Assembly (NCBI GenBank): GCA_964450845.1
Contig: CAYVGZ010000001.1
Span: forward strand, 107,076-171,075
Source of the DNA: an uncultured Candidatus Bathyarchaeia archaeon
GTDB lineage: Archaea > Thermoproteota > Bathyarchaeia > Bathyarchaeales > Bathycorpusculaceae
Direction: 5' to 3'
DNA length: 64,000 nt
The notes below the pieces were generated by a model. It was not told the origin of the DNA, did no database searches, and was given only the letters and a program-made list of their open reading frames with translations. The stretch's first letter is position 1; each line of letters opens with the position of its first letter. This document shows positions 2,316 through 54,662 of the stretch, piece after piece. Both the position numbers and the translations under genes were made by a program.

Positions 2316-2891
2316 TTACTTTTCGTCCGATTCTTCTTGTGTGATCACGTTAAACTTGACCAACTCAGTAGGAGTAAGATATCTATTTTTCTTCAATAGA
2401 TTTTTTACTCTTGTAGGTGAAATACCTAAGCGCTTTGCTGTAAAATTAACATACATTTCGTATACTGCTTTCGCATCTTTTCTTTCTTTCATAGTATCAC
2501 TATATGAGCTTTCACCTGTAGTTGTAATATGTTCGTGTACAAATATCTTACAACTTGGGAATAGCACTCTAAGGTCTCCAATTAGGAATAAGAAGAAACC
2601 TGCAGATGCGCATTCACCTAAACCAAACGTAGAGACGTGAACGTCAAATGTATCTCTTATAAATTGTATAGCGTCTATTATAGCAAAGCAATCTTTTAGA
2701 TATCCACCTTCTGATGCTATGTAGATACTTAGATTATTTATCTTTTCCTTCTGCCAGTCTGTTTCAAATAGAGCTTTGATAACATCTCTTGAAACTTCTT
2801 CATTAATCTCTCCGATGATATATAGCTGCTTGGTCTTTATATCTCCGTCTTCGATTACCGTAGTATCTTCATTAGTTCTTTCTTCTGCCAT
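2316..2891 (-). CDS. clpP: ClpP-like protease subunit
   Basis: LYIIGEIN, IASEGG, GLGECASAG (catalytic Ser), IFVHEH (His) match the ClpP family; the Asp position reads N (KKNRYL). Confidence 0.85.
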   Translation of the reverse strand: MAEERTNEDTTVIEDGDIKTKQLYIIGEINEEVSRDVIKALFETDWQKEKINNLSIYIASEGGYLKDCFAIIDAIQFIRDTFDVHVSTFGLGECASAGFFLFLIGDLRVLFPSCKIFVHEHITTTGESSYSDTMKERKDAKAVYEMYVNFTAKRLGISPTRVKNLLKKNRYLTPTELVKFNVITQEESDEK

Positions 2892-28219: not shown

Positions 28220-28804
28220 TCAATGACGGCGAAATGCTATATTATGCGGTACGTTTATTTTACAGAGGTTGCATCGTTTGCAGGACCCTGGGCAGATAAG
28301 ATATCCGTCTGGGACTGGAGCATCTCGTTCAATGACTGTGCAATTGCCATTGTTGCCTTTAGTACTTCCACTTCCTTTGATAAGGAATCTCGAGTTTGAG
28401 AAATCAAGATCTGATCTTGCGGAGTATCCGTAGGTTGTGACCCCAATTGTTGCAAGTCCTTCAGCAACGAATGATAGCTTGTCGATATCTTGCTGATCAT
28501 GGAAGTCACCAGACTCATTGTACCTGAGATATCTGGTAGTTTTCCTTCTGCTTTGGATTCGTTCAGCAATTTCTTGAAGGATTGTCTCTGCTCGTTGATT
28601 TCTCCAGTATGTTTCTTGAGCATTTCTGTAAGCTGGGACAGTGTTTGGGTATTGAATTTCTGCTTTTTCTGCATAGCATCTTATTCCTTTATTTATAACT
28701 TCGCATAGGCCAAGTTGCTTTGATGGGCATGTATTTGCTGGACCCATGTTGATAATAGCTGTATCATCTCCGAGCTTATGGTTTCCAAATTTAAGTCTAA
28801 TCAT
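28220..28804 (-). CDS. Hypothetical Cys-rich phage protein (Gp88-like)
   Basis: CPS...C...CYA, YLRYNESGDF, CPGSCKRCNLC, IAFRRH. Confidence 0.65.
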   Translation of the reverse strand: MIRLKFGNHKLGDDTAIINMGPANTCPSKQLGLCEVINKGIRCYAEKAEIQYPNTVPAYRNAQETYWRNQRAETILQEIAERIQSRRKTTRYLRYNESGDFHDQQDIDKLSFVAEGLATIGVTTYGYSARSDLDFSNSRFLIKGSGSTKGNNGNCTVIERDAPVPDGYLICPGSCKRCNLCKINVPHNIAFRRH

Positions 28805-28824: not shown

Positions 28825-31263
28825 CTAGGAGTGCTCCTCTTCAAGATCCTCTTTAGGGATCGTGTCTAATTTCTTTGCACTAGTAGGCCTAGAATCAAAG
28901 TCGTCTCCGAATAGATTTAGTTGTAAATTTTTTTTTATTCCAAACTTATCTAGTGCTTTCAAAACCAAGTCCTCATAGTAATTAAGGTCTAGTTGCGATA
29001 TATCGTCGACCCATTTAACGAATGTATAATTCTTTCCATTGATTTTATAATACGGTTTTAGTTCTGGAAATGGTAATGGTTTCTTTGTTACTACATAATT
29101 GATCTGGGTACCTTGTGTGGCAACCTGCCCAGTTTTCATTTCCATTTGTTTACCAAGGAATAATCTCATGTCATACGCGTCATCATATTCTCTTGGTTCC
29201 TTTGAAAGCTTAACGCGTTCTTCAAAGTCTTCCAGCTTTGCATTCTTAAAGTCTAAGGATTTCTGTAATACTTCATCCTTTGGCAAGCCATTGAATACAT
29301 GTTGTATAGCTAGCTGTATTGCTCGGTCTACTATGTGTGCTGCACGAGATGCTTTAAATGATGAACCATGTATTAGATACTTTCCATTCTCTTCAACTAC
29401 ATAGTTTTTCATAGCATAGAAGTAAGCTCTGCCAAAGTCATCTAACTCCATTTGCATGTAGTTATCTTTGATTCCAAACTTAGATTCTATTAGCTTGTCT
29501 AGCCATGTATTAATCTCTTTTTCTGATACTTCTTTATCTAGGATTAATCCATCTGTATCTAACTCTATTAGATTATCTCGTAGTTTTCTAATTACATTTC
29601 CAGTAGTCCATCTGCACATAGCAGTAACCATTACTGCAGACATCATGTCTCCATAGGTACTACTCTTAAGCCCCAAGATTCCGTATATTGAGTTGAGGAT
29701 AACCTTGATGGCGTACTGTTGAGAATCCAGCGCGGGTCGCTCCGATTCTGTAGCGGTCTTAAGCTGCTTTTTAATCTTAACACGCTCAGCACGAAGCTTC
29801 GATATTTCTGTCTTGAGTACACCTTCGACGTCGTTCCTGACCTTAATAAGGATATCACACCGAAAGTTAGCATCTGGAATCCTATACCAGTTGTATTTCG
29901 AGTCTTTCTTGAATGTGTATTTACCAGTGTACGGAAGCTTCTTGACGAAAGATGTGGTATCTGGCCCGAGGTTCCAAGTTTGGATGCTGCTGGGATACAT
30001 GCTGGAAAAGTCCAGTTTATAGACTTGAGGGAAATAACCATCTTTATATAGTCCTACTAATGCTCCTTCATACTTCGTTCCAATTTCTGCTATAGACCCA
30101 TTGCTGGCATTGTATCTTTGAAAGTTGCTATCTGTAGCAATAAGACCTTTCTTTTCCATGTTTCGGGCTAGGAATAACTTTGGTACGAAGCTGGAGTACA
30201 TTGTTATAATGCTATTGAGTGGAACACTTAGCATCTCTGCTAGAGTTATACAGTTTCTCATGTAGACATGGCCAACCCACTCGGTTCTGTATATGTCATC
30301 ATCTAAGTATGAGTAGAGTTTATCTGAGTCCTTCTTGTATAAGTCCACTAGATTTTCTACGTGGTCTTTTACTTCTATATCTTCTAATGCTTCTTCTCTC
30401 CATATTCCATTTATTATTTCAGTTCGCTTTGCTTTATAGAACCTAGCAATTTCTTTTAGAGACCTAGATTTGATACCAAACAGAGTTTGGTCTTTGGATA
30501 CTCCAGCATTGGAATTATATATATCAAAATGTATTCTTCCAGGAATTCTTAACTGGTCTTCAATGAAATATGGTGCCTTGTGTTGGCGACCAATCCCTTT
30601 CATACTTATATCTAGTAGCTTACACCTATCCATGATATATGGAAAGTCGAAATCTAGCGAGTTATACCCAGCTACAATGTCTGGATCGTTCTTCTCTACA
30701 TCATCTATAAATTCAAGCAGTATCTTTTTGTCACCGTCAGTGCTTTGTCCAATACTTGTTCCTTTCAAATCAAATCCTTTTATGATCTTATGTTTGAGCT
30801 TTTCTTTTGTACCATTGTTCTTATAAATCCAAATACTATATCCTATACATAAGATTTCATTTGATATTGACTTAGGAAAGAATCCATCACCCTTTGTTGC
30901 TACTTCTATATCAAAGAACATTATCTTTAGATCATTTGTATGAGGAAAGCCAAGAAGATAATCTGGCCTAGATATATACAGCTGTTCGATAAAGCTATTA
31001 GCTTGTATAAACCGTTGTCTATCTAAGCTTCTCTTTCTAAATTCTGTATATCCTTCTAGGTCTGGGAACTGAAGTCTAAGATATTCTCTTTCTTCATATT
31101 CTGGAACCTTAATCCACTTTTCTACTGGCGATTGAACGTCAGGAAACATGTCTTTTTGTGCTAAGACAAATGGTTTCATTGGGTGTTGGACCCGCTGTTC
31201 TAATCCATTTGCATATATAACTAATTCATCATTTGTTGGTATTACCGATAAAGGTATTTTCAT
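28825..31263 (-). CDS. polB: Family B DNA polymerase with 3'-5' exonuclease
   Basis: FDIEV, AGYNSLDFDFPY, LDFSSMYPS, KVILNSIYG, ELDTDG, KNY. Confidence 0.95.
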   Translation of the reverse strand: MKIPLSVIPTNDELVIYANGLEQRVQHPMKPFVLAQKDMFPDVQSPVEKWIKVPEYEEREYLRLQFPDLEGYTEFRKRSLDRQRFIQANSFIEQLYISRPDYLLGFPHTNDLKIMFFDIEVATKGDGFFPKSISNEILCIGYSIWIYKNNGTKEKLKHKIIKGFDLKGTSIGQSTDGDKKILLEFIDDVEKNDPDIVAGYNSLDFDFPYIMDRCKLLDISMKGIGRQHKAPYFIEDQLRIPGRIHFDIYNSNAGVSKDQTLFGIKSRSLKEIARFYKAKRTEIINGIWREEALEDIEVKDHVENLVDLYKKDSDKLYSYLDDDIYRTEWVGHVYMRNCITLAEMLSVPLNSIITMYSSFVPKLFLARNMEKKGLIATDSNFQRYNASNGSIAEIGTKYEGALVGLYKDGYFPQVYKLDFSSMYPSSIQTWNLGPDTTSFVKKLPYTGKYTFKKDSKYNWYRIPDANFRCDILIKVRNDVEGVLKTEISKLRAERVKIKKQLKTATESERPALDSQQYAIKVILNSIYGILGLKSSTYGDMMSAVMVTAMCRWTTGNVIRKLRDNLIELDTDGLILDKEVSEKEINTWLDKLIESKFGIKDNYMQMELDDFGRAYFYAMKNYVVEENGKYLIHGSSFKASRAAHIVDRAIQLAIQHVFNGLPKDEVLQKSLDFKNAKLEDFEERVKLSKEPREYDDAYDMRLFLGKQMEMKTGQVATQGTQINYVVTKKPLPFPELKPYYKINGKNYTFVKWVDDISQLDLNYYEDLVLKALDKFGIKKNLQLNLFGDDFDSRPTSAKKLDTIPKEDLEEEHS

Positions 31264-31595
31264 ATTATCTCCCAGTCTTTCGTATCTCTGGCCGTAATGG
31301 CCTTAAGAGCATTACCTCGCGGGATTAATAATGCAGTTCCGTCTTCGTTTACGTGCTCGCACTTATAGATTTTATATCCATGCTTATATTCCTGCCCAGA
31401 TATAAATTTTTCATCAAATATTTTAATGTGTCCACCGATTCTTCTTGTTATAACTTTGGTAAATGTTCTAGGTTCCCAGTTAATTCTTTTACCAGTTAGA
31501 TGTTCAAAGATTTCTACTGTAAATGAGCAGTTCTTTTGAGTTGAAGGATCGTATGTGCATTCCGTTACTCTTCCATCAAAATACATCCATATCAT
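31260..31595 (-). CDS. Hypothetical protein
   Basis: 111 aa, translationally coupled to the polymerase gene. Confidence 0.65.
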   Translation of the reverse strand: MIWMYFDGRVTECTYDPSTQKNCSFTVEIFEHLTGKRINWEPRTFTKVITRRIGGHIKIFDEKFISGQEYKHGYKIYKCEHVNEDGTALLIPRGNALKAITARDTKDWEII

Positions 31596-32188
31596 TATAA
31601 CATCTTCCTTAAGTTAATAGAGGAAGGTTTTCCTCCAGCTAGTAGTAGCAATCTTTCTGATGTTAATCTCCACCTAACTGCGTCTATAGTCTGTGCTGTA
31701 GGATAATTCCTATATAAAGTTGTTTCTTTCTCTATCATTTGCTTTATTATCTCTTGTAATTCAAAGCAAGTATTTTGAGTTAGATTATCTATGGAATCAT
31801 CCTTACGCATAAACCTATAGTAATAGCTAAGATATATAACCTTGTCTAGTCTTGCTTTCATTTCTCCTTGATCTGAGCCTAATAAAATATTTGCAACTAA
31901 AGAGTTTCTGAAGTGTGCTAGGTCATAGTTTTCTATCCAGTTGAAGTCTCTTTCTCTTCTTCTGAATGAGAATCTATATCCTTCATTTTCAACTACTAGA
32001 AATGGTTTTTCTCCTGCGAGATTATTCCAGTTTGCTGCTATATGTTCTCTCATGGCCTCATTATTAGCTGTGTAGAATCTTAATAACTCTTCTCGCTTTA
32101 AAATGAGATCTTGAAAGTGTAGCCTAGATTGAGAACCGATATCTTCGATTACTTTATCTAGTCCTATGATTTCCATTCTAACCGCCAA
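31595..32188 (-). CDS. Hypothetical protein
   Basis: 197 aa, overlaps the Ubl gene end. Confidence 0.65.
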   Translation of the reverse strand: MAVRMEIIGLDKVIEDIGSQSRLHFQDLILKREELLRFYTANNEAMREHIAANWNNLAGEKPFLVVENEGYRFSFRRRERDFNWIENYDLAHFRNSLVANILLGSDQGEMKARLDKVIYLSYYYRFMRKDDSIDNLTQNTCFELQEIIKQMIEKETTLYRNYPTAQTIDAVRWRLTSERLLLLAGGKPSSINLRKML

Positions 32189-32405
32189 TCAGTTGATTAG
32201 TAACACTAACCTCATGTTTAACTTTCTTGAGGTCGTCTTCTTGAATAACTTCTCCACCAAAGTGTTTTCCATCGATAAAGATAGTTCGTTTATTCTCTAT
32301 TTCAGTATTCAAGATTCTTATTGCATCTGCTAATGCATACTCTTCGGATTCATATCCTTTAGTTGGTATGGTACGTTCTATTCTAATCTTTTTTTCTTCA
32401 CTCAC
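32178..32405 (-). CDS. Ubiquitin-like (beta-grasp) protein ending in Gly-Gly
   Basis: 75 aa ending VSVTNQLIGG*; strand-strand-helix-strand pattern; ThiF gene two genes upstream. Confidence 0.7.
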   Translation of the reverse strand: MSEEKKIRIERTIPTKGYESEEYALADAIRILNTEIENKRTIFIDGKHFGGEVIQEDDLKKVKHEVSVTNQLIGG

Positions 32406-34746
32406 TTAGTTCCTCCTCCAGATTATAGATTGTTCCTGCTATTACTGAGTCATTCTTCAGTGCTAATAACTTAGATATAACAGTATCATATCCAATGTTC
32501 GATTTAATATTACTTTGATCTATCATGCACACGTATTTTCCGTTCTCATATACATTCTTTGCACCCTTCTTTAATTCAGGGTCTATAAATACGTATGAAT
32601 CCTTGTTATCATAGGCAATAATATATCTGTGACCAGACATACCAACAAGGGTTATAGCAGTCATGTTCCTATTTCCTTTAGAGTTCCAATAAGAACAAAA
32701 CTCTCCTTGTACGTCTGTAACTTTTTTTGTCAGAAATGCTTGAGATCTTTCCTTAAAGGCCTCATATGCTGAGTCTATTAAAAACTTATATCTAACGTAG
32801 TCTTTTGAACTTTCTACAGATTCAAATATAATCTTTTGTATCTTGTCTTCACAGCTAGTAACCTGTTCTCCAATAAACTTAGCAAAGAGTATGTTAACTA
32901 GTTCTTTTCCCTTAATTGGAATCTCTATCGTGTCTAAGATCATCACATATTTAGATCTACCCTTAAGCTTTTTAAATCTAAATAGCTTGTTTGAACTACC
33001 AAGCTTAAGCTCATAACCAGAAGTCATTCCAATGTATACAGATAGACCTAACTTACCAATGTTAGATATAAATTTGTTTGCTTCCTCTTGGCTTCTATAA
33101 CATGTTAATTCTCTTAGAACAGTTAACACTTCATTCCTATTAAATCTTTGACCATTGAGATAGGTAAGCTTTGCTTTATTAGCAGTAGTTTTAATCTCTA
33201 GCTTAATCTCTATACAGTCGTTTAATTTAATAGTTATTACAGAGTTTTCAGCAGAATACGAGTTAACTCTGTTCTTAAGTTCGGTAAAGATCTTGTCTAG
33301 AATATCGTTTAAGATAGTCTCTTCACTTGTCTCGCCTCTGTAGTATGTTATCAGGTATGATTCAAATGTTTGGAACAGTCTCTGCTTTAGTAACTCGTCA
33401 TCTATAGCTATACTGAAATCATTGTATGAGACTTTTCCTTCTGAATGGTTATACTTAATCTTATCACTTATATTGACATCAGAACCAACTGCCTTCTGTT
33501 TCTGTACAATATACTTATATTCGTCTACCATCTTCTTTAAAGCCTTTAGTCTTATCTGTAGTGGCTTTACCTCTGTAGAATCCTTTGATACAGCTGACTC
33601 GAATGAGTCGTAGTTCATATGTATCTTGCCTTTTATAATGGTAGTTCCAGTTAGCTTAGTTAGATTCTTAGTTAGAACATCAACATACTTTTCTAGTACT
33701 GTTTTAATATGTTCTATTGGCTCTTTATCTATTCGAGGGTCTGGTCCGATTATTATATCGTAATGACCACCATGTCTAGGTATACTTAATATAATTCTGC
33801 CTTCATCTACAAAGTTATATGGCATTCGTCCAAAGTTTGTTATCTTAGCATCATCATATGTCCAAGGTCTTGTTTCGGCCATCCATAAGTCTTCAAGATT
33901 ACTAAGTTTAAGCGCATCTCCTTGTACTCCTGCCTTAGCAGTAGCTACTAATGTTGATTGCTTAATCTCATCCATACCATCAAATGGTAGTATCTTTATT
34001 TGATAAGTTCTGGTATTGTTTCCTTGAAGAACCTTTGTAATTTTACCTATATATACAGCTCCGCTTTTTATGCAGTTGTGAACTACATTTAATCTTAGAG
34101 GATCACATTCAAGCTTCTTTGCGAAAGCGGATATTATTTCTCTTATCTCTTTTCTTTTTAGTTCCTTCACACTATTGAAGTGCTCAAATATACTATTGAG
34201 CTCTTTTGTAGTAGATCCATCGGTCTGCTTTGATATGCTTATGTTCTTTGTTTTTCCATTGGAAGACATAAACTCACATTGATCAGTAAATCTTTTCTTT
34301 GATACTACCTGTCCCATAAGAGAATCAGCAATAATATAATCTATCATATCGTCAGGATAGGCATCAAACCCCTCATTCTTATTTCTGTAGTCGTCAGTCG
34401 TAGTAGACATCCATTGTAGTATGTCTTCGTCCCCTGAGTCTAATGCCTTTGCTTCTATTCCCTTTTCAATCTTTTCATTAATTGTCCAAGTTAGAATAGT
34501 AAATGGATACCATCGTCCAGCAGATTTGTTGATCAAGTGAAGATTACTTTTTTTGTCATTAGTAATCTTAATTAACCTAAATCCTGTTTCTTTTCCCTCA
34601 AAACTGTCAGTAGCTTCGCACACCGTTTTAATTGCTACCTCGGCATTGTTAACACTATCTACGTCTAGCTTATAGTTTAACAAGGTATCTAATACTTCAC
34701 GAGGTGTGCTAACTTTTTGTTCTGTAGCTTCGCCTTTTTGTCTCAT
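32398..34746 (-). CDS. Large hypothetical protein between E1 and Ubl
   Basis: 782-aa intact ORF; no family recognised. Confidence 0.8.
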   Translation of the reverse strand: MRQKGEATEQKVSTPREVLDTLLNYKLDVDSVNNAEVAIKTVCEATDSFEGKETGFRLIKITNDKKSNLHLINKSAGRWYPFTILTWTINEKIEKGIEAKALDSGDEDILQWMSTTTDDYRNKNEGFDAYPDDMIDYIIADSLMGQVVSKKRFTDQCEFMSSNGKTKNISISKQTDGSTTKELNSIFEHFNSVKELKRKEIREIISAFAKKLECDPLRLNVVHNCIKSGAVYIGKITKVLQGNNTRTYQIKILPFDGMDEIKQSTLVATAKAGVQGDALKLSNLEDLWMAETRPWTYDDAKITNFGRMPYNFVDEGRIILSIPRHGGHYDIIIGPDPRIDKEPIEHIKTVLEKYVDVLTKNLTKLTGTTIIKGKIHMNYDSFESAVSKDSTEVKPLQIRLKALKKMVDEYKYIVQKQKAVGSDVNISDKIKYNHSEGKVSYNDFSIAIDDELLKQRLFQTFESYLITYYRGETSEETILNDILDKIFTELKNRVNSYSAENSVITIKLNDCIEIKLEIKTTANKAKLTYLNGQRFNRNEVLTVLRELTCYRSQEEANKFISNIGKLGLSVYIGMTSGYELKLGSSNKLFRFKKLKGRSKYVMILDTIEIPIKGKELVNILFAKFIGEQVTSCEDKIQKIIFESVESSKDYVRYKFLIDSAYEAFKERSQAFLTKKVTDVQGEFCSYWNSKGNRNMTAITLVGMSGHRYIIAYDNKDSYVFIDPELKKGAKNVYENGKYVCMIDQSNIKSNIGYDTVISKLLALKNDSVIAGTIYNLEEELSE

Positions 34747-34755
34747 GTTTATTCC

Positions 34756-35325
34756 TTAGAAGTGGATCATTAGGTCGTTCGGTAGTTTCTTTGTTCTTGT
34801 ATATGATAAGACTGCTTGAGCAAGCGCAGCAGCTACTATCACGTTACCGTATTCGATTTCTTCCTTAGCTATCTGAAACGGATTCTGACAGCTTTGGCTC
34901 TCGCTTGATTCGTCTATTGTGGAGATATAGTTCTCTGTTTCGCTTGAGAATATTCCAATCATTTTACCATTTGCCCTAGCATCTATAAATGGTATTCCTG
35001 ATGTTACAAATGCATCGTGAGCGTTACGTCTTATCAGATTATTATCAGCACATAGAATGATAAGACTAAAGCCATTTAAATCTTTTCTTTCTATTCGTTT
35101 GTTCTCGAATGCTACATTTAAGCACCTAAATTCTAGAGCGGAGGTCTTGTATTCTCCTATGTCTCCAGGTTCAAAGTTCTGATATAGAATGTTTTTCTTC
35201 TCTACCTTATCATCATCAAAGAACTTGAAGTTAACATCTTTTATTTGCTCTAGATCAATTAGCCTGTTAATATGTTCTGCGAAGTACGATCCAATTCCTC
35301 CACAACCTACTACTGCGACGTTCAT
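34756..35325 (-). CDS. ThiF/MoeB-family (E1-like) adenylyltransferase
   Basis: VAVVGCGGIGS, FDDDKVEKKNILYQNF..GDIGEYK, ILCADN, FIDAR; a Cys in SCQ; lacks Zn-binding CxxC pairs. Confidence 0.9.
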   Translation of the reverse strand: MNVAVVGCGGIGSYFAEHINRLIDLEQIKDVNFKFFDDDKVEKKNILYQNFEPGDIGEYKTSALEFRCLNVAFENKRIERKDLNGFSLIILCADNNLIRRNAHDAFVTSGIPFIDARANGKMIGIFSSETENYISTIDESSESQSCQNPFQIAKEEIEYGNVIVAAALAQAVLSYTRTKKLPNDLMIHF

Positions 35326-35939
35326 ACTTGCTCCTTTAATCGTTTGAGCCCAAGTTCAGCTATAACTACTGCATCAGCTATGTGCTCAAACTCACCTTTA
35401 TTATATATATTTAAAATTCCAGCTTCCTGTACTCTGCTGCAATTTATAATGAACTTCTTGTTATTGGTTCCTATTTGGTTACTATAGTTTTTAACTACGT
35501 AATCTATCACTTCATTCTTTGTAGCCTTGGCCTTGCCAGTAACCTGTTTATGAACCTCAGTTGGCGTCACAGGAGCACGCATCCATGACCCAGCATCTAT
35601 ATTTTCAAACATCTGCTGCGATAATACTGATGCTATGACTCCTTTAGCCATGCCTAAGCAGGCAGCTGCTCGTTGACTCTGAGATCCTCCAGGTACTTCA
35701 AATGCAAATATTTTAATACCAGATCTATTCATTAGAGTATTCATGAACATCTTTACTCCAGAGTATAAGATAGATGCTCGGTCAAGATCTATTAGACTGG
35801 ACGACTTAGGAAGCTTTGGATTCTTTATCAGCCGCGAAGTCTCAATACATGGCTTGATGCCCTTACGATCCTGTCGTAAGATGACGCATCCGCAGAAATT
35901 AAAGGAGCAATCAATTGCTCCGACGTAAATTTTAGCCAT
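35322..35939 (-). CDS. RuvC-like Holliday junction resolvase
   Basis: AIDCSF, FAFEVP, PVTPTEVHK..TGKAKATKNEV, HIADAV. Confidence 0.75.
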   Translation of the reverse strand: MAKIYVGAIDCSFNFCGCVILRQDRKGIKPCIETSRLIKNPKLPKSSSLIDLDRASILYSGVKMFMNTLMNRSGIKIFAFEVPGGSQSQRAAACLGMAKGVIASVLSQQMFENIDAGSWMRAPVTPTEVHKQVTGKAKATKNEVIDYVVKNYSNQIGTNNKKFIINCSRVQEAGILNIYNKGEFEHIADAVVIAELGLKRLKEQV

Positions 35940-36541: not shown

Positions 36542-36983
36542 TTATATGATCCTTCAGTTGTTCTGTTAGGAATTCTTTAGCAGCAATGCTTGGTCTTCTT
36601 AATCCATCATCTCCTATTAGAACTATTTGTGGAACTGGATTAAGTTTCTTTCTCATCATAATGTCAATCTCTAATCCAAATGCATTTCTAGTCAACATTT
36701 GGTTTTGTATATAGTCTGGATTAGCCTGTCGTATTGTTCCAGGATATGTTATCAGTCTTAACTGATATACTTTAGATCTAGGTTCAGTCTTTACTAGATC
36801 TAATAAGGCAAGTCGCCCAGACAAGCCAGCAGTTTGAAAAACTGAATATACATATTTAGGACTGACTTTACTTAGCTGCTCTGTTATGTCTGGCTCTGTC
36901 CGTCTTATTAATGATATAGATAATGTTGGAGTAAAATCTGTAATACTAGTTAATAGCTTTTTAAGTTCTCCTAGGTACGCCAT
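36342..36983 (-). CDS. Hypothetical protein
   Basis: 213-aa ORF. Confidence 0.6.
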   Translation of the reverse strand: MAYLGELKKLLTSITDFTPTLSISLIRRTEPDITEQLSKVSPKYVYSVFQTAGLSGRLALLDLVKTEPRSKVYQLRLITYPGTIRQANPDYIQNQMLTRNAFGLEIDIMMRKKLNPVPQIVLIGDDGLRRPSIAAKEFLTEQLKDHINGFNTERRRLKKPANLSPRIQETLKRDRIQLDERLQPAFRPATPRARFTPNASMETSSNIGELLSF

Positions 36984-37209
36984 ATATGTTTGCCCCTCCT
37001 GATGTCTTGTATTCTGGCGGAACAGTATTTCCCATTGTTCTTTTGGTCTTTGATATCGCGCCAGGAGTCATTGTAAAGCTGAACATAGGTGGTCTCTTGG
37101 ACATTGGTTTTCCGCATTCCAAGCAGAGTACTGGAGCATCTGCATCATTAATCAAAACATCATTCTGGTCTGCTCCGCATTCTTCACAATAAAAGTCAAA
37201 TATTGGCAT
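36961..37209 (-). CDS. FmdB-like zinc-ribbon protein
   Basis: MPIFDFYCEECG...CLECG. Confidence 0.8.
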   Translation of the reverse strand: MPIFDFYCEECGADQNDVLINDADAPVLCLECGKPMSKRPPMFSFTMTPGAISKTKRTMGNTVPPEYKTSGGANIYGVPRRT

Positions 37210-37210
37210 C

Positions 37211-37473
37211 TTATACTCCTCTTTTAATTGCTGGCTCTGATTTGATTGAGCCTCGTTCTATATCTCTATAATGAATTGTTGTTAACATTCGATCAGTAGT
37301 AGGTATTCGTTGAATACCTAAAATGTATTTAGGTGTTTCATTAAGAAAGTTGTTAATTTCTTCATCATCATCGTTTTGACCTTCGTGTTTCCAAACTTAA
37401 CCAAACCTTGATTGACTTCGTGTAATACTGTGTAAGCGAAAGGCTTTTCCGCTATTTCTGTCCTGAGGTTCAT
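37211..37473 (-). pseudogene. Hypothetical gene with in-frame TAA
   Basis: MNLRTEIAEK...SRFG*VWKHEGQ...IKRRV*; stop at 37397-37399; fills the gap exactly with overlapping start. Confidence 0.5.
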
Positions 37474-38060
37474 TTGGCTTTCTCCTTGTATAGCTTAGCG
37501 ATCTTTTCCCAATCATTTCTTCTTATGAAATCTTTGTAGCTTGGATCTTCGTACTCTGACTTTTCTAAATAATAACTCATAGGATAAGATAGAACTACAT
37601 CTACTCCTGTTGAGGTCTTTGCTATAATTTGTCCGTGAGTATCTCTTAATATATTTTTTCTTTTAACGAAGGCAAACTGGGCATCTTCGCCAAGAACAAC
37701 TACAAGGTGTGGTCTAAATATCTCAACAAGCTTTTCTGTCCAAGTTCCAAACGCTTTAATATCGTTCTTGGATACCTGTTCAAGCGGGATTAGAAAGCAG
37801 GAAGAAAGTACCACGTTGTTTAAAGAAAAGTCATTAACAGTTTGAAAAAGATATTTAGAATATTTGTCTTGGAATGGTTTATCTCCATTTAATGGAGGGC
37901 CCAAAACTAATAAGCAATTACCTACGTGTTCAGGATATCCATATGCTACATAAAGTTTCTTTCTACCAAAGTCATACCCATAAGTCAGAGCAACTTTTTT
38001 AAGGTCCTTTTTGAATGCTTCAATGTTTTCCTCAAATGTTGTACCATAGAACAAGTCCAT
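37470..38060 (-). CDS. Uracil-DNA glycosylase-like fold, degenerate
   Basis: LVLGPP...KPF, RPHLVVVLGEDA, LSYPMSY where family-4 UDG has HP(S/A). Confidence 0.55.
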   Translation of the reverse strand: MDLFYGTTFEENIEAFKKDLKKVALTYGYDFGRKKLYVAYGYPEHVGNCLLVLGPPLNGDKPFQDKYSKYLFQTVNDFSLNNVVLSSCFLIPLEQVSKNDIKAFGTWTEKLVEIFRPHLVVVLGEDAQFAFVKRKNILRDTHGQIIAKTSTGVDVVLSYPMSYYLEKSEYEDPSYKDFIRRNDWEKIAKLYKEKAK

Positions 38061-51608: not shown

Positions 51609-54600
51609 TCACTCCTGTTTTAAAGTTTTAAAGACAATCTTCGGAACTTCCGAAGTTAGTCTAGACACGACGTCGTGCCCATTTTTCGAGTCAGATAAGA
51701 CTCGTTCTTGAATCTCAACTCGATCAATGTCCACATCGTACATTTCAAGATTTCGTTGTATGTTAGCATCGAAAATCTGTTTAAGGTTTTCTTTGCTTAG
51801 TTGATTAAATACTATCACTTCATCTACTGATTTCATTAGGTCTTCGCCAACAATTTTCTTTAGCTCATCGTGATTGACCTCTCCTTTTTGTTCTTCCTTT
51901 GCAGGACTGAACCCCATCGCCCTAGCTTTGCCTTTAAATACCTTTGCTGTTTCTTCATCATTTAGCGTGACTCCGAAAATTATTACAGTATTATTAAGAC
52001 TTGCTTCCCTTTCAGCTGAATCTGTTATCTTTCCATGACGGCTTGCATCAATAACGTACTGAATGATAGATTCATCTGCTTTATTGATTCCTCTAAAGTA
52101 CACAATAGATTGAGGATTGTTTCGTATTGATTTAATAAGTCCGCCAGACTTTCCATAGCCGACATATCCTGGAGGAGCACCTTTGAGTTCAGTAATCATA
52201 AACTCGCTAGTCATTCCAGTCATATCGTACTCTATATATGCGCTATCTTTTCCATAGAGATTCTTTGCTAAGAGTTGTGCTGCGGATTTCTTTCCAACAC
52301 CAGATGGCCCCACTACTAGTAGCGTGGCTATTGGTCTCTCTCTGTCGTATTTGACATGCTTAAATATATTAACGATGTTAGCTAGCGTCTTGATTGCTTC
52401 GTCCTGACCAAATATTTTTTCTTGTAGGGCGCCTAGCACCTCTTTAAACTCTAAACTGTTCTTTATCTTTCCATATGAAATATTTGTAACAGATGAGATA
52501 GCTAAATTTACATAGTCTGTTGTTAATATTCTAGAACCAGGAACAAGCTTAGCTGATTCTATCTCGTTCTTGTTCAGTTCTAAGTCAGGTATGTACTCAT
52601 TCTTAGGTTCTTCTCGTTTAGTCTCTAGCGTTATTTCTTTTTCATTCAGTATAGCACACGCTATATCTAACAAGTCTAGAGACTTATCTGGGTTTTTTCT
52701 ATGACCTAAGAACCTGCTTCCATTTACTACGGTATACTCGCAGACATCTTCAGGAATTGTACATTTATGCTCTTCTTCAAGAACTGATTTGGTTCCCTTT
52801 ATCATAGCTATTGTCTGATCAATTGATGGCTCAGCTATGTTAACCACTGTGAATCGTCGCTCTAGTGCAACATCATCTGTTATGATTGAGTGATACTCAT
52901 TTATAGTTGTGCTGCCAATGAAACGTATCTGTTCTGTAAGATATGGCTTCATCACGTCATTCATTTTGTGGCCCAAGAGCTGGTGTACTTCGTCGATGAA
53001 GAGGATAGCCTTGTCATACGATGAGGCACGTTCCAGTACTTTGATGATCGTCCCCATAGGGTCTTCTTTGAACTTCGTGAACACATACGGTATGTCAAGG
53101 TTGAGGATCTGAGCACCGAGTAATTGACGGGGTACCGTACGTTCGATAAGACGCGCGTTAATAGCGTTGACAATTGCTGTATTATGTGTTACAATAAAGT
53201 CGTTTGTGATATATAAATGATCTGGATGATCGATATATATACATACACATTCTTTTTCCCCTAATTCTTTAATTTTAGTTATTTCAAGCTTTAAATTGTT
53301 ATATTGATAGTCTATAGGTATTCTATCTAATTTTCTTTTTAAAGTAACATAGTTTCTAGGATTAGGGATTCTTATATTTACTATATAAGATAACTTTCCC
53401 TCTTTTTTTATTCCTTTATATGTAAATTTTGGATATTTTTTAGATATACTAGCAATTCCTCCTAATGACCGAACCAAATACTGGATATTTTCCGCTAATT
53501 GTTTACTTGAAGTACTGTATTGGAGTGTTCCAGTCGAACAAACTGTTCCATTAGTATCCATTAAGCCTCGTAACAGTTCTGTCTTAGAAGCTATAGAACT
53601 ATTTAAGTATATTTCTGGAATATATTTGAATTCAGAAGTTACATCTAATCCCACCGATTTTATAAAATTTCTATATTTGTTAGAATATATATTATTTGAA
53701 TTGGATATAATAGATGCTGTAATGGTTTTTTTATCAGGATGTTCAGTTAAACTATGGTTTTTATCTAATTTAGATCTTACTTTTTCTCTAATTTCTTTAT
53801 CCTGTTTTGTAAAGTGAGGACCTTTAGTTAAAGAACCATCTCCGATTAATACTCCAAGTATATAAGGATCTATTTCAAGTTCAATTTCTTTAGTATCTAT
53901 TGGTTTAACTAAATTAATATATAGTCGTTCTCTTGTTTTTTCTTTAATTTGTTTAATTAAGTTAGACTCTATTACTCTTGATTCAGATCCTAATCTTTTC
54001 CAATTTTTGGAATAAACTTTCCATAAATGTTCATTACAACATTCAGTTTTTCGGCCATCGGAAAATGTAATTTCATTTACTTGTTTTTTACCTTGTGGAA
54101 AAATTCCAAGCACTTTAGCCTTAGAATTATCTGGACAGATTACTGAATCTCCAATTTTTAAATCTTTTATTTTGATCCATCCAGATGGAGTTAAAATCGT
54201 AGAATCAATAGGCTGCGCCTTCCCGACTCCAGGTTCACCAACAAGTATGACCCCTCTCTTACTGCTCTTACATAGAGTCAAAAGTATCTTATCTATCTCC
54301 ATGTCCCTGCCAGTAATAATGTGACCCTTCTGATACTTCATTAGCTTACAGCATTTGAAGTCAGAATATGTTAGCACTAGTGGACTATTGGTTATAGACT
54401 CAATGTTATTTCTTTTTCTTGCGCCTTCTACATAGCTAAGCAACTGCTTTACTGAGATCCAAATTCCTTCAGGAACTTGTTCCAGCAGTTTCTTAAATCT
54501 TTCTTCTGATATCTTTGTTGGCTTTAGTGGAGTAGCCTTATTATCCAGATAGCTGGTTAATGTTTTTAGGCACTCATCGCTAAGTAGATCGTCAGTTTTA

Positions 54601-54662
54601 CACGCTATGTTATTAAGCGCAATGTTAACTGTTGCTGATAGTTCGATCTTTTTTGTTTGCAT
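51609..54662 (-). CDS. ClpA/ClpC-like two-domain AAA+ chaperone containing an intein
   Basis: ITGRDMEI, LVGEPGVGK|TAIV, LFIDEVH, IGSTT..EY, ALERRF, PDKSLDLLD, IFGQDEAI, LKGAPPGYVGY..GGL, MGF loop. Confidence 0.88.
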   Translation of the reverse strand: MQTKKIELSATVNIALNNIACKTDDLLSDECLKTLTSYLDNKATPLKPTKISEERFKKLLEQVPEGIWISVKQLLSYVEGARKRNNIESITNSPLVLTYSDFKCCKLMKYQKGHIITGRDMEIDKILLTLCKSSKRGVILVGEPGVGKAQPIDSTILTPSGWIKIKDLKIGDSVICPDNSKAKVLGIFPQGKKQVNEITFSDGRKTECCNEHLWKVYSKNWKRLGSESRVIESNLIKQIKEKTRERLYINLVKPIDTKEIELEIDPYILGVLIGDGSLTKGPHFTKQDKEIREKVRSKLDKNHSLTEHPDKKTITASIISNSNNIYSNKYRNFIKSVGLDVTSEFKYIPEIYLNSSIASKTELLRGLMDTNGTVCSTGTLQYSTSSKQLAENIQYLVRSLGGIASISKKYPKFTYKGIKKEGKLSYIVNIRIPNPRNYVTLKRKLDRIPIDYQYNNLKLEITKIKELGEKECVCIYIDHPDHLYITNDFIVTHNTAIVNAINARLIERTVPRQLLGAQILNLDIPYVFTKFKEDPMGTIIKVLERASSYDKAILFIDEVHQLLGHKMNDVMKPYLTEQIRFIGSTTINEYHSIITDDVALERRFTVVNIAEPSIDQTIAMIKGTKSVLEEEHKCTIPEDVCEYTVVNGSRFLGHRKNPDKSLDLLDIACAILNEKEITLETKREEPKNEYIPDLELNKNEIESAKLVPGSRILTTDYVNLAISSVTNISYGKIKNSLEFKEVLGALQEKIFGQDEAIKTLANIVNIFKHVKYDRERPIATLLVVGPSGVGKKSAAQLLAKNLYGKDSAYIEYDMTGMTSEFMITELKGAPPGYVGYGKSGGLIKSIRNNPQSIVYFRGINKADESIIQYVIDASRHGKITDSAEREASLNNTVIIFGVTLNDEETAKVFKGKARAMGFSPAKEEQKGEVNHDELKKIVGEDLMKSVDEVIVFNQLSKENLKQIFDANIQRNLEMYDVDIDRVEIQERVLSDSKNGHDVVSRLTSEVPKIVFKTLKQE
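53181..54218 (-). mobile_element. Ala-initiated (class 3-type) intein, 346 aa, with LAGLIDADG endonuclease, in the D1 Walker A
   Basis: Starts AQPIDSTILTPSGW, block B EHLW, block F CVC, ends FIVTHN followed by Thr; blocks LGVLIGDGS and LRGLMDTNG. Confidence 0.9.

Follow-up and report, generated by a model that had tools for sequence, protein, structure and literature searches.

A 64,000-nucleotide (nt) stretch of contig CAYVGZ010000001.1, assembled with an uncultured Candidatus Bathyarchaeia archaeon and referred to here as the window, carries phage DNA and within it a short run of genes that, on balance, we read as a protein conjugation cassette owned by the phage. The cassette consists of an E1-like adenylating enzyme of 189 amino acids (aa), a 75-aa ubiquitin-like (Ubl) tag ending in Gly-Gly, and a 782-aa protein that would be a new and very large E2-like enzyme. 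An earlier note on this DNA had proposed a viral protein-conjugation system at the same place, and the proposal is now supported by the fold of the tag, the conservation of its Gly-Gly end, the E2-like C-terminus of the large protein, and the composition of related cassettes that also encode a JAB peptidase (type B, below).

The three genes lie in a single minus-strand run of tightly coupled genes at positions 31260-35325, between a RuvC-like gene and a gene for a family-B DNA polymerase (PolB), and the reading frames that the note had named are all present and as closely packed as it had described. Along the minus strand come the E1 gene (34756-35325, starting MNVAVVGCGGIGSY), the gene for the 782-aa protein, or E2L (32398-34746), the tag gene (32178-32405, with a GTG start), and two conserved genes without a family, p197 (31595-32188, a 197-aa frame that is more likely 193 aa with an ATG at 32176) and p111 (31260-31595, 111 aa), the latter situated between p197 and PolB. 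Neighboring cassette genes overlap by 1-11 nt or are separated by a 9-nt gap, and the run as a whole is therefore coupled in translation. The tag gene begins, behind the Shine-Dalgarno sequence GGAGGAGGA, with a GTG that overlaps the stop codon of the 782-aa gene. The 782-aa protein has a strongly conserved NLEEEL tail encoded by CTGGAGGAGGAA (window 32398-32420, minus strand); as these letters both encode NLEEEL and give the overlapping tag gene its Shine-Dalgarno sequence, conservation of the tail may partly be at the level of RNA.

The 75-aa tag ends VSVTNQLIGG and is followed directly by the stop, with the Gly-Gly codons at 32181-32186. A profile search collected 76 cluster representatives of 51-83 aa, and all 76 have a terminal Gly-Gly right before the stop (64 as LIGG, 9 as LVGG, 2 as LNGG, and 1 as LTGG); the conservation on which the earlier note had staked its idea extends to the distant tags of type B loci. 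The AlphaFold model of the tag, built with 75 sequences, has a mean predicted local distance difference test score (pLDDT) of 90.3 and runs strand-strand-helix-strand-short helix-strand. The top 50 Foldseek matches in the PDB are all ubiquitin, ISG15, NEDD8, SUMO, or UFM1 (probability 0.89-1.00, E 5e-3 to 3e-2, TM-score 0.40-0.51). VIA-align returned, at Z 4.0-5.4, Ubl and Ras-binding domains, MoaD (Z 4.2-4.6), ISG15, SUMO, and the Ubl of a bacterial E1-E2-Ubl complex of the Bil type (8tyz_B). The predicted fold of the tag is the beta-grasp that the note had anticipated, in a diverged form and matched at the level of fold only. No Pfam model, including ThiS/MoaD (PF02597 and relatives), matched any of the 75 members at E<=10, and the tag gave no PDB sequence match.

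The E1 is recognizable from its sequence. It matches Pfam ThiF (PF00899) across residues 2-178 with 49.7 bits (cut-off 28.1) and an E-value of 3.4e-13. The best NCBIfam model is PRTRC_ThiF (TIGR03736; 7.6e-12), which at 45.1 bits stays below its cut-off of 144.75. Matches to PADLOC models for the Cap2 E1 half are weak (best 4.4e-7) and confined to the first ~80-100 residues, and PDB profile matches to Uba5, MccB, and ThiF are also weak and N-terminal. A search of 5.8 billion clusters returned 265 homologues, nearly all of them 186-196 aa long, on contigs that reach 437 kb. These homologues bear automatic names only, for example "molybdopterin/thiamine biosynthesis adenylyltransferase"; the one that is named at NCBI is a ThiF protein on a 229-kb contig of a Candidatus Omnitrophica metagenome-assembled genome (MAG). 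Across 121 aligned E1s the conserved segments are GCGGIGSY, DDDxVExKNxLYQNF, K60, LCADNNxIRR (with Asp94), FIDxRANG, and SCQNPFQ, and both Cys146 (codon 34888-34890, in SCQNPFQ) and Cys92 are kept in 99% of the sequences. Cys146 stands 52 residues past Asp94, a position that we take to be that of the crossover-loop cysteine of MoeB/ThiF/Uba5-type enzymes. The catalytic roles of the nucleotide loop, FDDD, K60, and Asp94 are likewise presumed from MoeB and ThiF. The compact ThiF/E1 of the earlier note, with its GCGGIG loop, a cysteine in SCQ, and no CxxC pairs, agrees with both the sequence and the Pfam assignment: the protein is an adenylation core only, with no Zn-binding CxxC pairs, separate catalytic-Cys domain, ubiquitin-fold domain, or rhodanese domain. 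Canonical E1s of the Uba1/Uba2/Uba3 type are recognized by a Cys domain together with a ubiquitin-fold domain, both of which this protein lacks. At 189 aa it is near the lower size limit for an E1 and among the smallest known.

The 782-aa protein belongs to no family in Pfam, PHROG, PADLOC, or NCBIfam. It can be divided into ~500 N-terminal residues that are specific to its own family and a widely shared C-terminal module of about 270-280 residues (residues 500-782; 32401-33249, minus strand) that is common to uncultured-virus proteins. Fourteen full-length homologues share 39-71% identity with it. In a hidden Markov model (HMM) search of 1.84 billion representatives, ~45 of the 169 matches were full length, and the remainder covered mainly residues ~500-776 and were located at the C-terminus of uncultured-virus proteins of 620-1400 aa. 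A 658-aa relative aligns across positions 177-773, which makes the shorter forms homologous along most of their sequence; ten distant relatives contained no Pfam domain. The idea of an E1 fused inside a 1212-aa relative was rejected after a negative hhalign comparison, the E1 there being a separate gene at the contig end. At 50% identity the module family comprises well over 100 representatives.

Conservation within the module centers on a small number of residues. Tyr708, Cys740, and Asp766 are invariant in 135/135 aligned C-terminal modules, and near-invariant positions include Gly702 (134/135), Asn531 (133/135), Cys549 (131/135; codon 33100-33102), and E539. Cys740 (codon 32527-32529), which sits in a GKYVCMID loop and is followed by a helix that holds ALKNDS with Asp766, is the very cysteine that the earlier note had singled out in its YVCMIDQ segment. 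Relatives bearing Cys740 are as low as ~22% in identity.

A predicted structure gives this pattern a context. The AlphaFold model of the 782-aa protein has a pLDDT of 76.7, and its residues 647-782 (32401-32808, minus strand) form a long helix, a four-strand meander, the loop with Cys740, and a further helix. When the full-length model was compared with 48,161 chains by VIA-align, the UEV domain of Vps23 ranked first overall (Z 5.4, 97 residues aligned). Eight of the top 50 rows have an aligned range within residues 579-782, and seven of these eight are UBC-superfamily folds: the Vps23 UEV, FANCL (Z 4.7), chain D of the Citrobacter Bub complex 9eav (Z 4.5; from its chain size we take it to be the Bub E2, BubB), residues 8-153 of Cap2 (Z 4.4), the Knl1 RWD domain (Z 4.3), the VPS37A UEV (Z 4.2), and a Plasmodium falciparum E2 (Z 4.1). 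The Cap2 segment is its E2 domain (7to3_A), and it aligns with residues 665-774. As a group the UBC-fold matches fall on residues ~657-782; their Z-scores of 4.1-5.4, obtained from the full-length model, are no higher than common arrangements can give. At the other end of the protein, the first ~95 residues resemble a PAS domain (Z about 5), and the central part gave no convincing structural match.

Taking the convergence on one superfamily together with an invariant cysteine in the right place and a GxSGxxY...G-x-[YH]-[IV]-C-[IM]-[IV]-D pattern that recalls E2 cores, we consider it likely that the C-terminal domain is an E2-like carrier domain. Cys740 would then be catalytic, standing where an E2 has its catalytic cysteine after the four-strand meander. 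The earlier note had left the large protein as carrier, ligase, or target; the E2/UEV-like fold, the invariant cysteine, and the place of the protein in related cassettes narrow the choice toward carrier or ligase and away from target. The same note had seen no recognizable E2 or JAB protease in the window. This stands for sequence searches, and no Prok-JAB is found on the phage contig, the sole match in the assembly being on another contig (C28); it does not stand for structure, where an E2-like fold is predicted for the C-terminal end of the 782-aa protein.

Other searches for an E2 relationship were negative. The 782-aa protein had no Pfam, NCBIfam, or PADLOC match to UQ_con or Prok-E2_A-E at E<=0.1. 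A profile of the module compared with PDB sequences produced coiled-coil noise only, and a search of the ESM Atlas with residues 640-782 gave no E2 lead. No Prok-E2_B was detected in 301 genomes of the host phylum, and the control genomes gave none either. Foldseek with the whole 782-aa model returned no significant PDB match and, from BFVD, three viral proteins without a name; faint matches of this model to sliding clamps, lipocalins, and hot-dog folds were not trusted.

A number of observations weigh against a working conjugation cassette. The E2 assignment stems from weak structural scores (Z 4.1-5.4, with root-mean-square deviations of 3.6-6.3 Å), and the loop with Cys740 has a pLDDT below 50 in the 782-residue model. 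No sequence method (Pfam, NCBIfam, ESM Atlas, or PDB profile) ties the domain to an E2 family, and there is no HPN motif, the segment ahead of Cys740 reading FIDP...NGKYVC. The TM-scores of the tag are modest (~0.45-0.5), with no sequence match to ThiS, MoaD, or ubiquitin. The E1 has no N-terminal Arg-finger segment and carries a Tyr where, we presume, MoeB-type enzymes carry an Arg, so that E1 activity is not assured. Finally, JAB peptidases and Gly-Gly beta-grasp proteins occur in sulfur-carrier pathways too.

The strongest argument for reading these genes as a conjugation cassette comes from context. Loci that hold the C-terminal module were scanned with HMMs for E1, tag, JAB, p197, and p111, for a total of 24 loci including three duplicates. 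An E1 and a Gly-Gly tag adjoin the module in 24/24 loci, and two architectures can be distinguished. The type A order, E1-E2L-Ubl-p197-p111-PolB, is found in eight distinct loci (the window, L001-L003, L007-L009, and L014), none with a JAB gene. The big protein is only 34-71% identical among these loci, and the recurrence of one gene order in eight of them is far beyond chance. The earlier note had advised such a neighborhood search for the trio in other large phages. The gene for p197 is present in 8/8 type A loci, behind the tag gene, where type B has its JAB gene, and p111 was detected in 7/8. Neither p197 nor p111 has a Pfam, PHROG, or PDB sequence match, and the idea that either is a degenerate JAB was rejected (hhalign probabilities below 1%, no PDB sequence matches).

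The type B order, E2L-Ubl-JAB-E1, is found in L004, L005, L010, L011, and L016-L026, with a JAB gene in 15/15. These JAB proteins have the full E...HxH...S..D JAMM motif, and the neighboring genes are RNR/dUTPase or AAA_24/DUF669/RecU/PolA. Type B tags end at the Gly-Gly or continue past it for 3 to ~150 more residues (L018, L011, L005). Such extensions would need to be trimmed, which accounts for the JAB. The precursor tags of L005 (7986-8660) and L011 (5320-5829) have a C-terminal domain of 95-150 aa past the Gly-Gly; the two extension domains have the motifs DLHIxxFxSxDG and FKG..L..F in common, and the adjacent JAB would release them. Since type B is made up of the same parts as cellular Ubl-E2-JAB-E1 operons and offers no other E2 candidate, the large protein appears to fill the E2 slot. 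The cassette is always located within nucleotide-metabolism or replication modules, with PolB, UDG-like, RNR, or dUTPase genes near.

From the families, folds, and invariant residues, the tight operon, and the strict co-occurrence we infer each chemical step of the following scheme, including the thioester relay, as well as that there is a protein target and what kind of protein it is. The 189-aa E1 would bind ATP and adenylate the C-terminal Gly75 of the tag, which would then form a thioester, probably on Cys146 of the E1, and move by transthioesterification to Cys740 of the E2-like domain. The 782-aa protein would be a combined carrier and ligase (an E2-E3 hybrid), its ~650 further residues picking the target, with Cys549 as a possible second relay site. 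Early in infection the tag would be attached to a lysine residue on some protein of the host or the phage, and the place of the cassette in early and replication modules suggests that it acts in host takeover or replication. In type A the tag would be made mature at its Gly-Gly and need no JAB, and in the distant relatives the JAB would trim tag precursors and could also reverse the tagging.

Whether an E2 is involved at all can be asked of the same data. In archaeal SAMP/UbaA and Thermus TtuB/TtuC, tagging is independent of an E2, and in a phage cassette of this kind the E1 would both activate the tag and transfer it unaided, leaving the 782-aa protein the part of main target, adaptor, or regulator. 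Both the E1 and the tag are of minimal, ThiS/MoaD-like size, and the tag can be used without processing. Among named ESM Atlas clusters ThiS comes nearest to the tag, with a score of just 0.82 that makes it a lead only. The evidence for the E2-like fold is weak, as described above, and noncatalytic UEV/RWD folds are often binding modules. However, a noncatalytic UEV-like binder is not expected to keep Cys740 in all 135 modules across such low identities, and the big protein is the sole constant partner of the E1, tag, and JAB in 24/24 loci. We regard tagging without an E2 as unlikely for these reasons.

The tag could instead be a sulfur carrier, with its thiocarboxylate donating sulfur for thio-modification of phage DNA, nucleotides, or tRNA and with the two cysteines of the 782-aa protein acting as a persulfide relay or sulfurtransferase. 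A ThiF-type E1 and a Gly-Gly beta-grasp protein are the classical pair for such a pathway, and sulfur-carrier operons hold JAB genes too (PMC1779556). The location of the cassette within nucleotide-metabolism and replication modules and the two near-invariant cysteines would also fit. The partners are what is missing: in line with the earlier note, which had seen no thiazole, molybdopterin, or tRNA-thiolation gene in the window, no rhodanese, cysteine desulfurase, PP-loop ATPase, MoaE, or ThiG was found on the phage contig, and MoaE and ThiG are absent from three essentially complete relatives, although host enzymes could substitute. Furthermore, the C-terminus of the 782-aa protein resembles E2/UEV folds and not known sulfurtransferases, and Foldseek places the conjugated modifiers ubiquitin, ISG15, NEDD8, and SUMO above MoaD and ThiS for the tag. 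A sulfur carrier is accordingly a quite unlikely identity for this tag. E1-driven ligation to a peptide or nonprotein acceptor (as in MccB/PaaA, or onto lipid, nucleotide, or DNA), with the 782-aa protein as an acceptor-binding transferase, is highly improbable: the E1 N-terminus does match MccB as well as ThiF, close behind Uba5, and E1-E2 relatives in cells are able to work with unusual acceptors or by way of oxyesters (Bub, PMC11601596), but the substrate here is a 75-aa protein that has a beta-grasp fold and a ubiquitin-type Gly-Gly, not a short peptide, and the isopeptidase-type JAB enzymes of the relatives fit protein conjugates.

Compared as an E1-E2-Ubl conjugation cassette, the phage genes are closest to the cellular Ubl-E2-JAB-E1 operons of bacteria, among them Bil with BilA-D (10.1101/2023.09.26.559546) and the operon classes of Iyer et al. 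2006 (PMC1779556). As in Bil, one operon encodes a ThiF-type E1, a beta-grasp tag whose C-terminus is a Gly, and a probable E2-fold Cys carrier, with a JAB in the type B relatives, and the tag counts the Bil-type Ubl 8tyz_B among its structural matches. Unlike Bil, which is found in host defense islands, the phage cassette lies in the replication module of lytic-type large phages. Its E1 is a bare 189-aa adenylation domain, its type A clade lacks a JAB, and its E2-like domain, which shows no sequence similarity to Prok-E2/UBC families, forms the C-terminal end of a larger multidomain protein (620-1400 aa) in which a second Cys is conserved. Among PADLOC defense models the match to the cassette is limited to the N-terminal part of the E1. 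That weak E1 match, the structural match to the Cap2 E2 domain, and the JAB in relatives are points in common with type II CBASS and its Cap2/Cap3. Cap2 is an E2-E1 fusion, whereas the phage E1 and E2-like protein are encoded by separate genes; the phage substrate is a dedicated Ubl instead of a CD-NTase tail, and no CD-NTase or effector is present.

The remaining systems are further removed. The cassette is like Bub in having a diverged E1/E2-like/Ubl set, in a tag that is maybe made as a precursor, and in the structural match to 9eav chain D (PMC11601596). Bub enzymes use serine oxyesters and have no catalytic cysteines (PMC11601596), in contrast to the invariant Cys146 and Cys740 of the phage E1 and E2-like protein. 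PRTRC systems of plasmids and integrative and conjugative elements share with the cassette a mobile-element location and provide the best NCBIfam model of the E1, yet the E1 is far below the family cut-off, and no model for ParB or another PRTRC protein matches the neighbors. A compact ThiF-type E1 with a Gly-Gly beta-grasp protein that needs no processing is also typical of ThiS/ThiF, MoaD/MoeB, SAMP/UbaA, and TtuB/TtuC; the phage contig differs in having none of the biosynthetic or sulfur-transfer partners searched for and a constant, large, Cys-bearing E2-like partner. In phages, a Ubl/JAB pair exists as tail-assembly protein I and the JAB-NlpC/P60 protein TAPK of lambdoid and T1 phages (PMC1779556). 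That pair lies in a tail-assembly cluster with no E1 or E2, whereas the present cassette has an E1 and an E2-like protein and belongs to a replication module.

The phage origin assumed in the earlier note is borne out by the surroundings. The window encodes a primase-helicase, a UvsX-like recombinase, an Erf-like annealing protein, a UvrD-type helicase, and PolB. The contig that carries it is 196.6 kb long and was binned with a 1.64-Mb MAG, and closest to it are virus genomes of 213-230 kb in IMG/VR, of which direct terminal repeats close two. On the upstream flank of the cassette lies the RuvC-like resolvase gene (35322-35939, minus strand; PHROG 159, 8.3e-14), and beyond it are genes for a Zn_ribbon_8 protein (36961-37209, minus strand) and a UDG-superfamily protein (37470-38060, minus strand; a weak match, 1.1e-4), both syntenic in the relatives L002 and L003. 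On the other flank, PolB (28825-31263, minus strand; 812 aa, assigned by Pfam) is directly followed downstream by a Cys-rich GP88-family protein of 194 aa (28220-28804, minus strand; PF17338, 2e-8), a pairing also seen in L001-L003. The PolB orthologues of L001 (9571-13200) and L003 (9267-12758) contain intein and homing-endonuclease domains (Intein_splicing, Hom_end, and LAGLIDADG_3) and are ~350-400 aa longer than the intein-free PolB of the window.

Two genes for protein turnover are also found in the window. One encodes a 1017-aa double-AAA unfoldase of the Hsp100/Clp type (51609-54662, minus strand; AAA, AAA_lid_9, and AAA_2, with a match to the PHROG "ATP-dependent protease" at 2.3e-92), whose first AAA domain is interrupted by a LAGLIDADG intein. 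An intein-free version of ~690 aa is present in 4/4 related type A phages checked and in one of them lies ~17 kb from the Ubl cassette. The other encodes a ClpP-family peptidase (2316-2891, minus strand; PF00574, 3.2e-19), which may be a prohead protease or the partner of a Clp ATPase; the three complete relatives also have it. A bolder extension of the conjugation scheme, to which we give little chance, would make the 782-aa protein a giant viral E2-E3 hybrid that relays the tag between Cys740 and Cys549 (in either order). In the clade lacking JAB, irreversible tagging would then deliver proteins to the phage Hsp100/Clp unfoldase and ClpP-like peptidase, as an analogue of the ubiquitin-proteasome or Pup-proteasome pathways in the service of host takeover or counter-defense. 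The Hsp100 ATPase is present in 5/5 type A phages and not clearly in the type B fragments, so the Clp link is confounded with lineage and is kept as speculation only.

Among 50,697 GenBank phage records, no match to the locus, the 782-aa protein, two of its distant relatives, or the E1 was found by DNA and protein searches. Full-text literature searches turned up cellular systems and the Ubl-JAB pair of lambda/T1 tail assembly, and no phage E1-E2-Ubl cassette. Somewhat more probably than not, in our estimate, the cassette represents virus-encoded Ubl conjugation with a minimal E1 and a new giant E2-like enzyme. The partner enzyme would represent an unannotated, very large E2-like family with two invariant cysteines, and it and the E1 can be described as small, soluble-looking proteins suited to reconstitution in vitro. 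Prokaryotic Ubl conjugation has been characterized as a cellular function, and lately as anti-phage immunity in Bil, CBASS Cap2/Cap3, and probably Bub. If the cassette works as proposed, this picture would be reversed: a clade of large phages would tag proteins itself, much as eukaryotic viruses exploit ubiquitin, and may do so to disarm defenses, remodel the host, or regulate its own replication.

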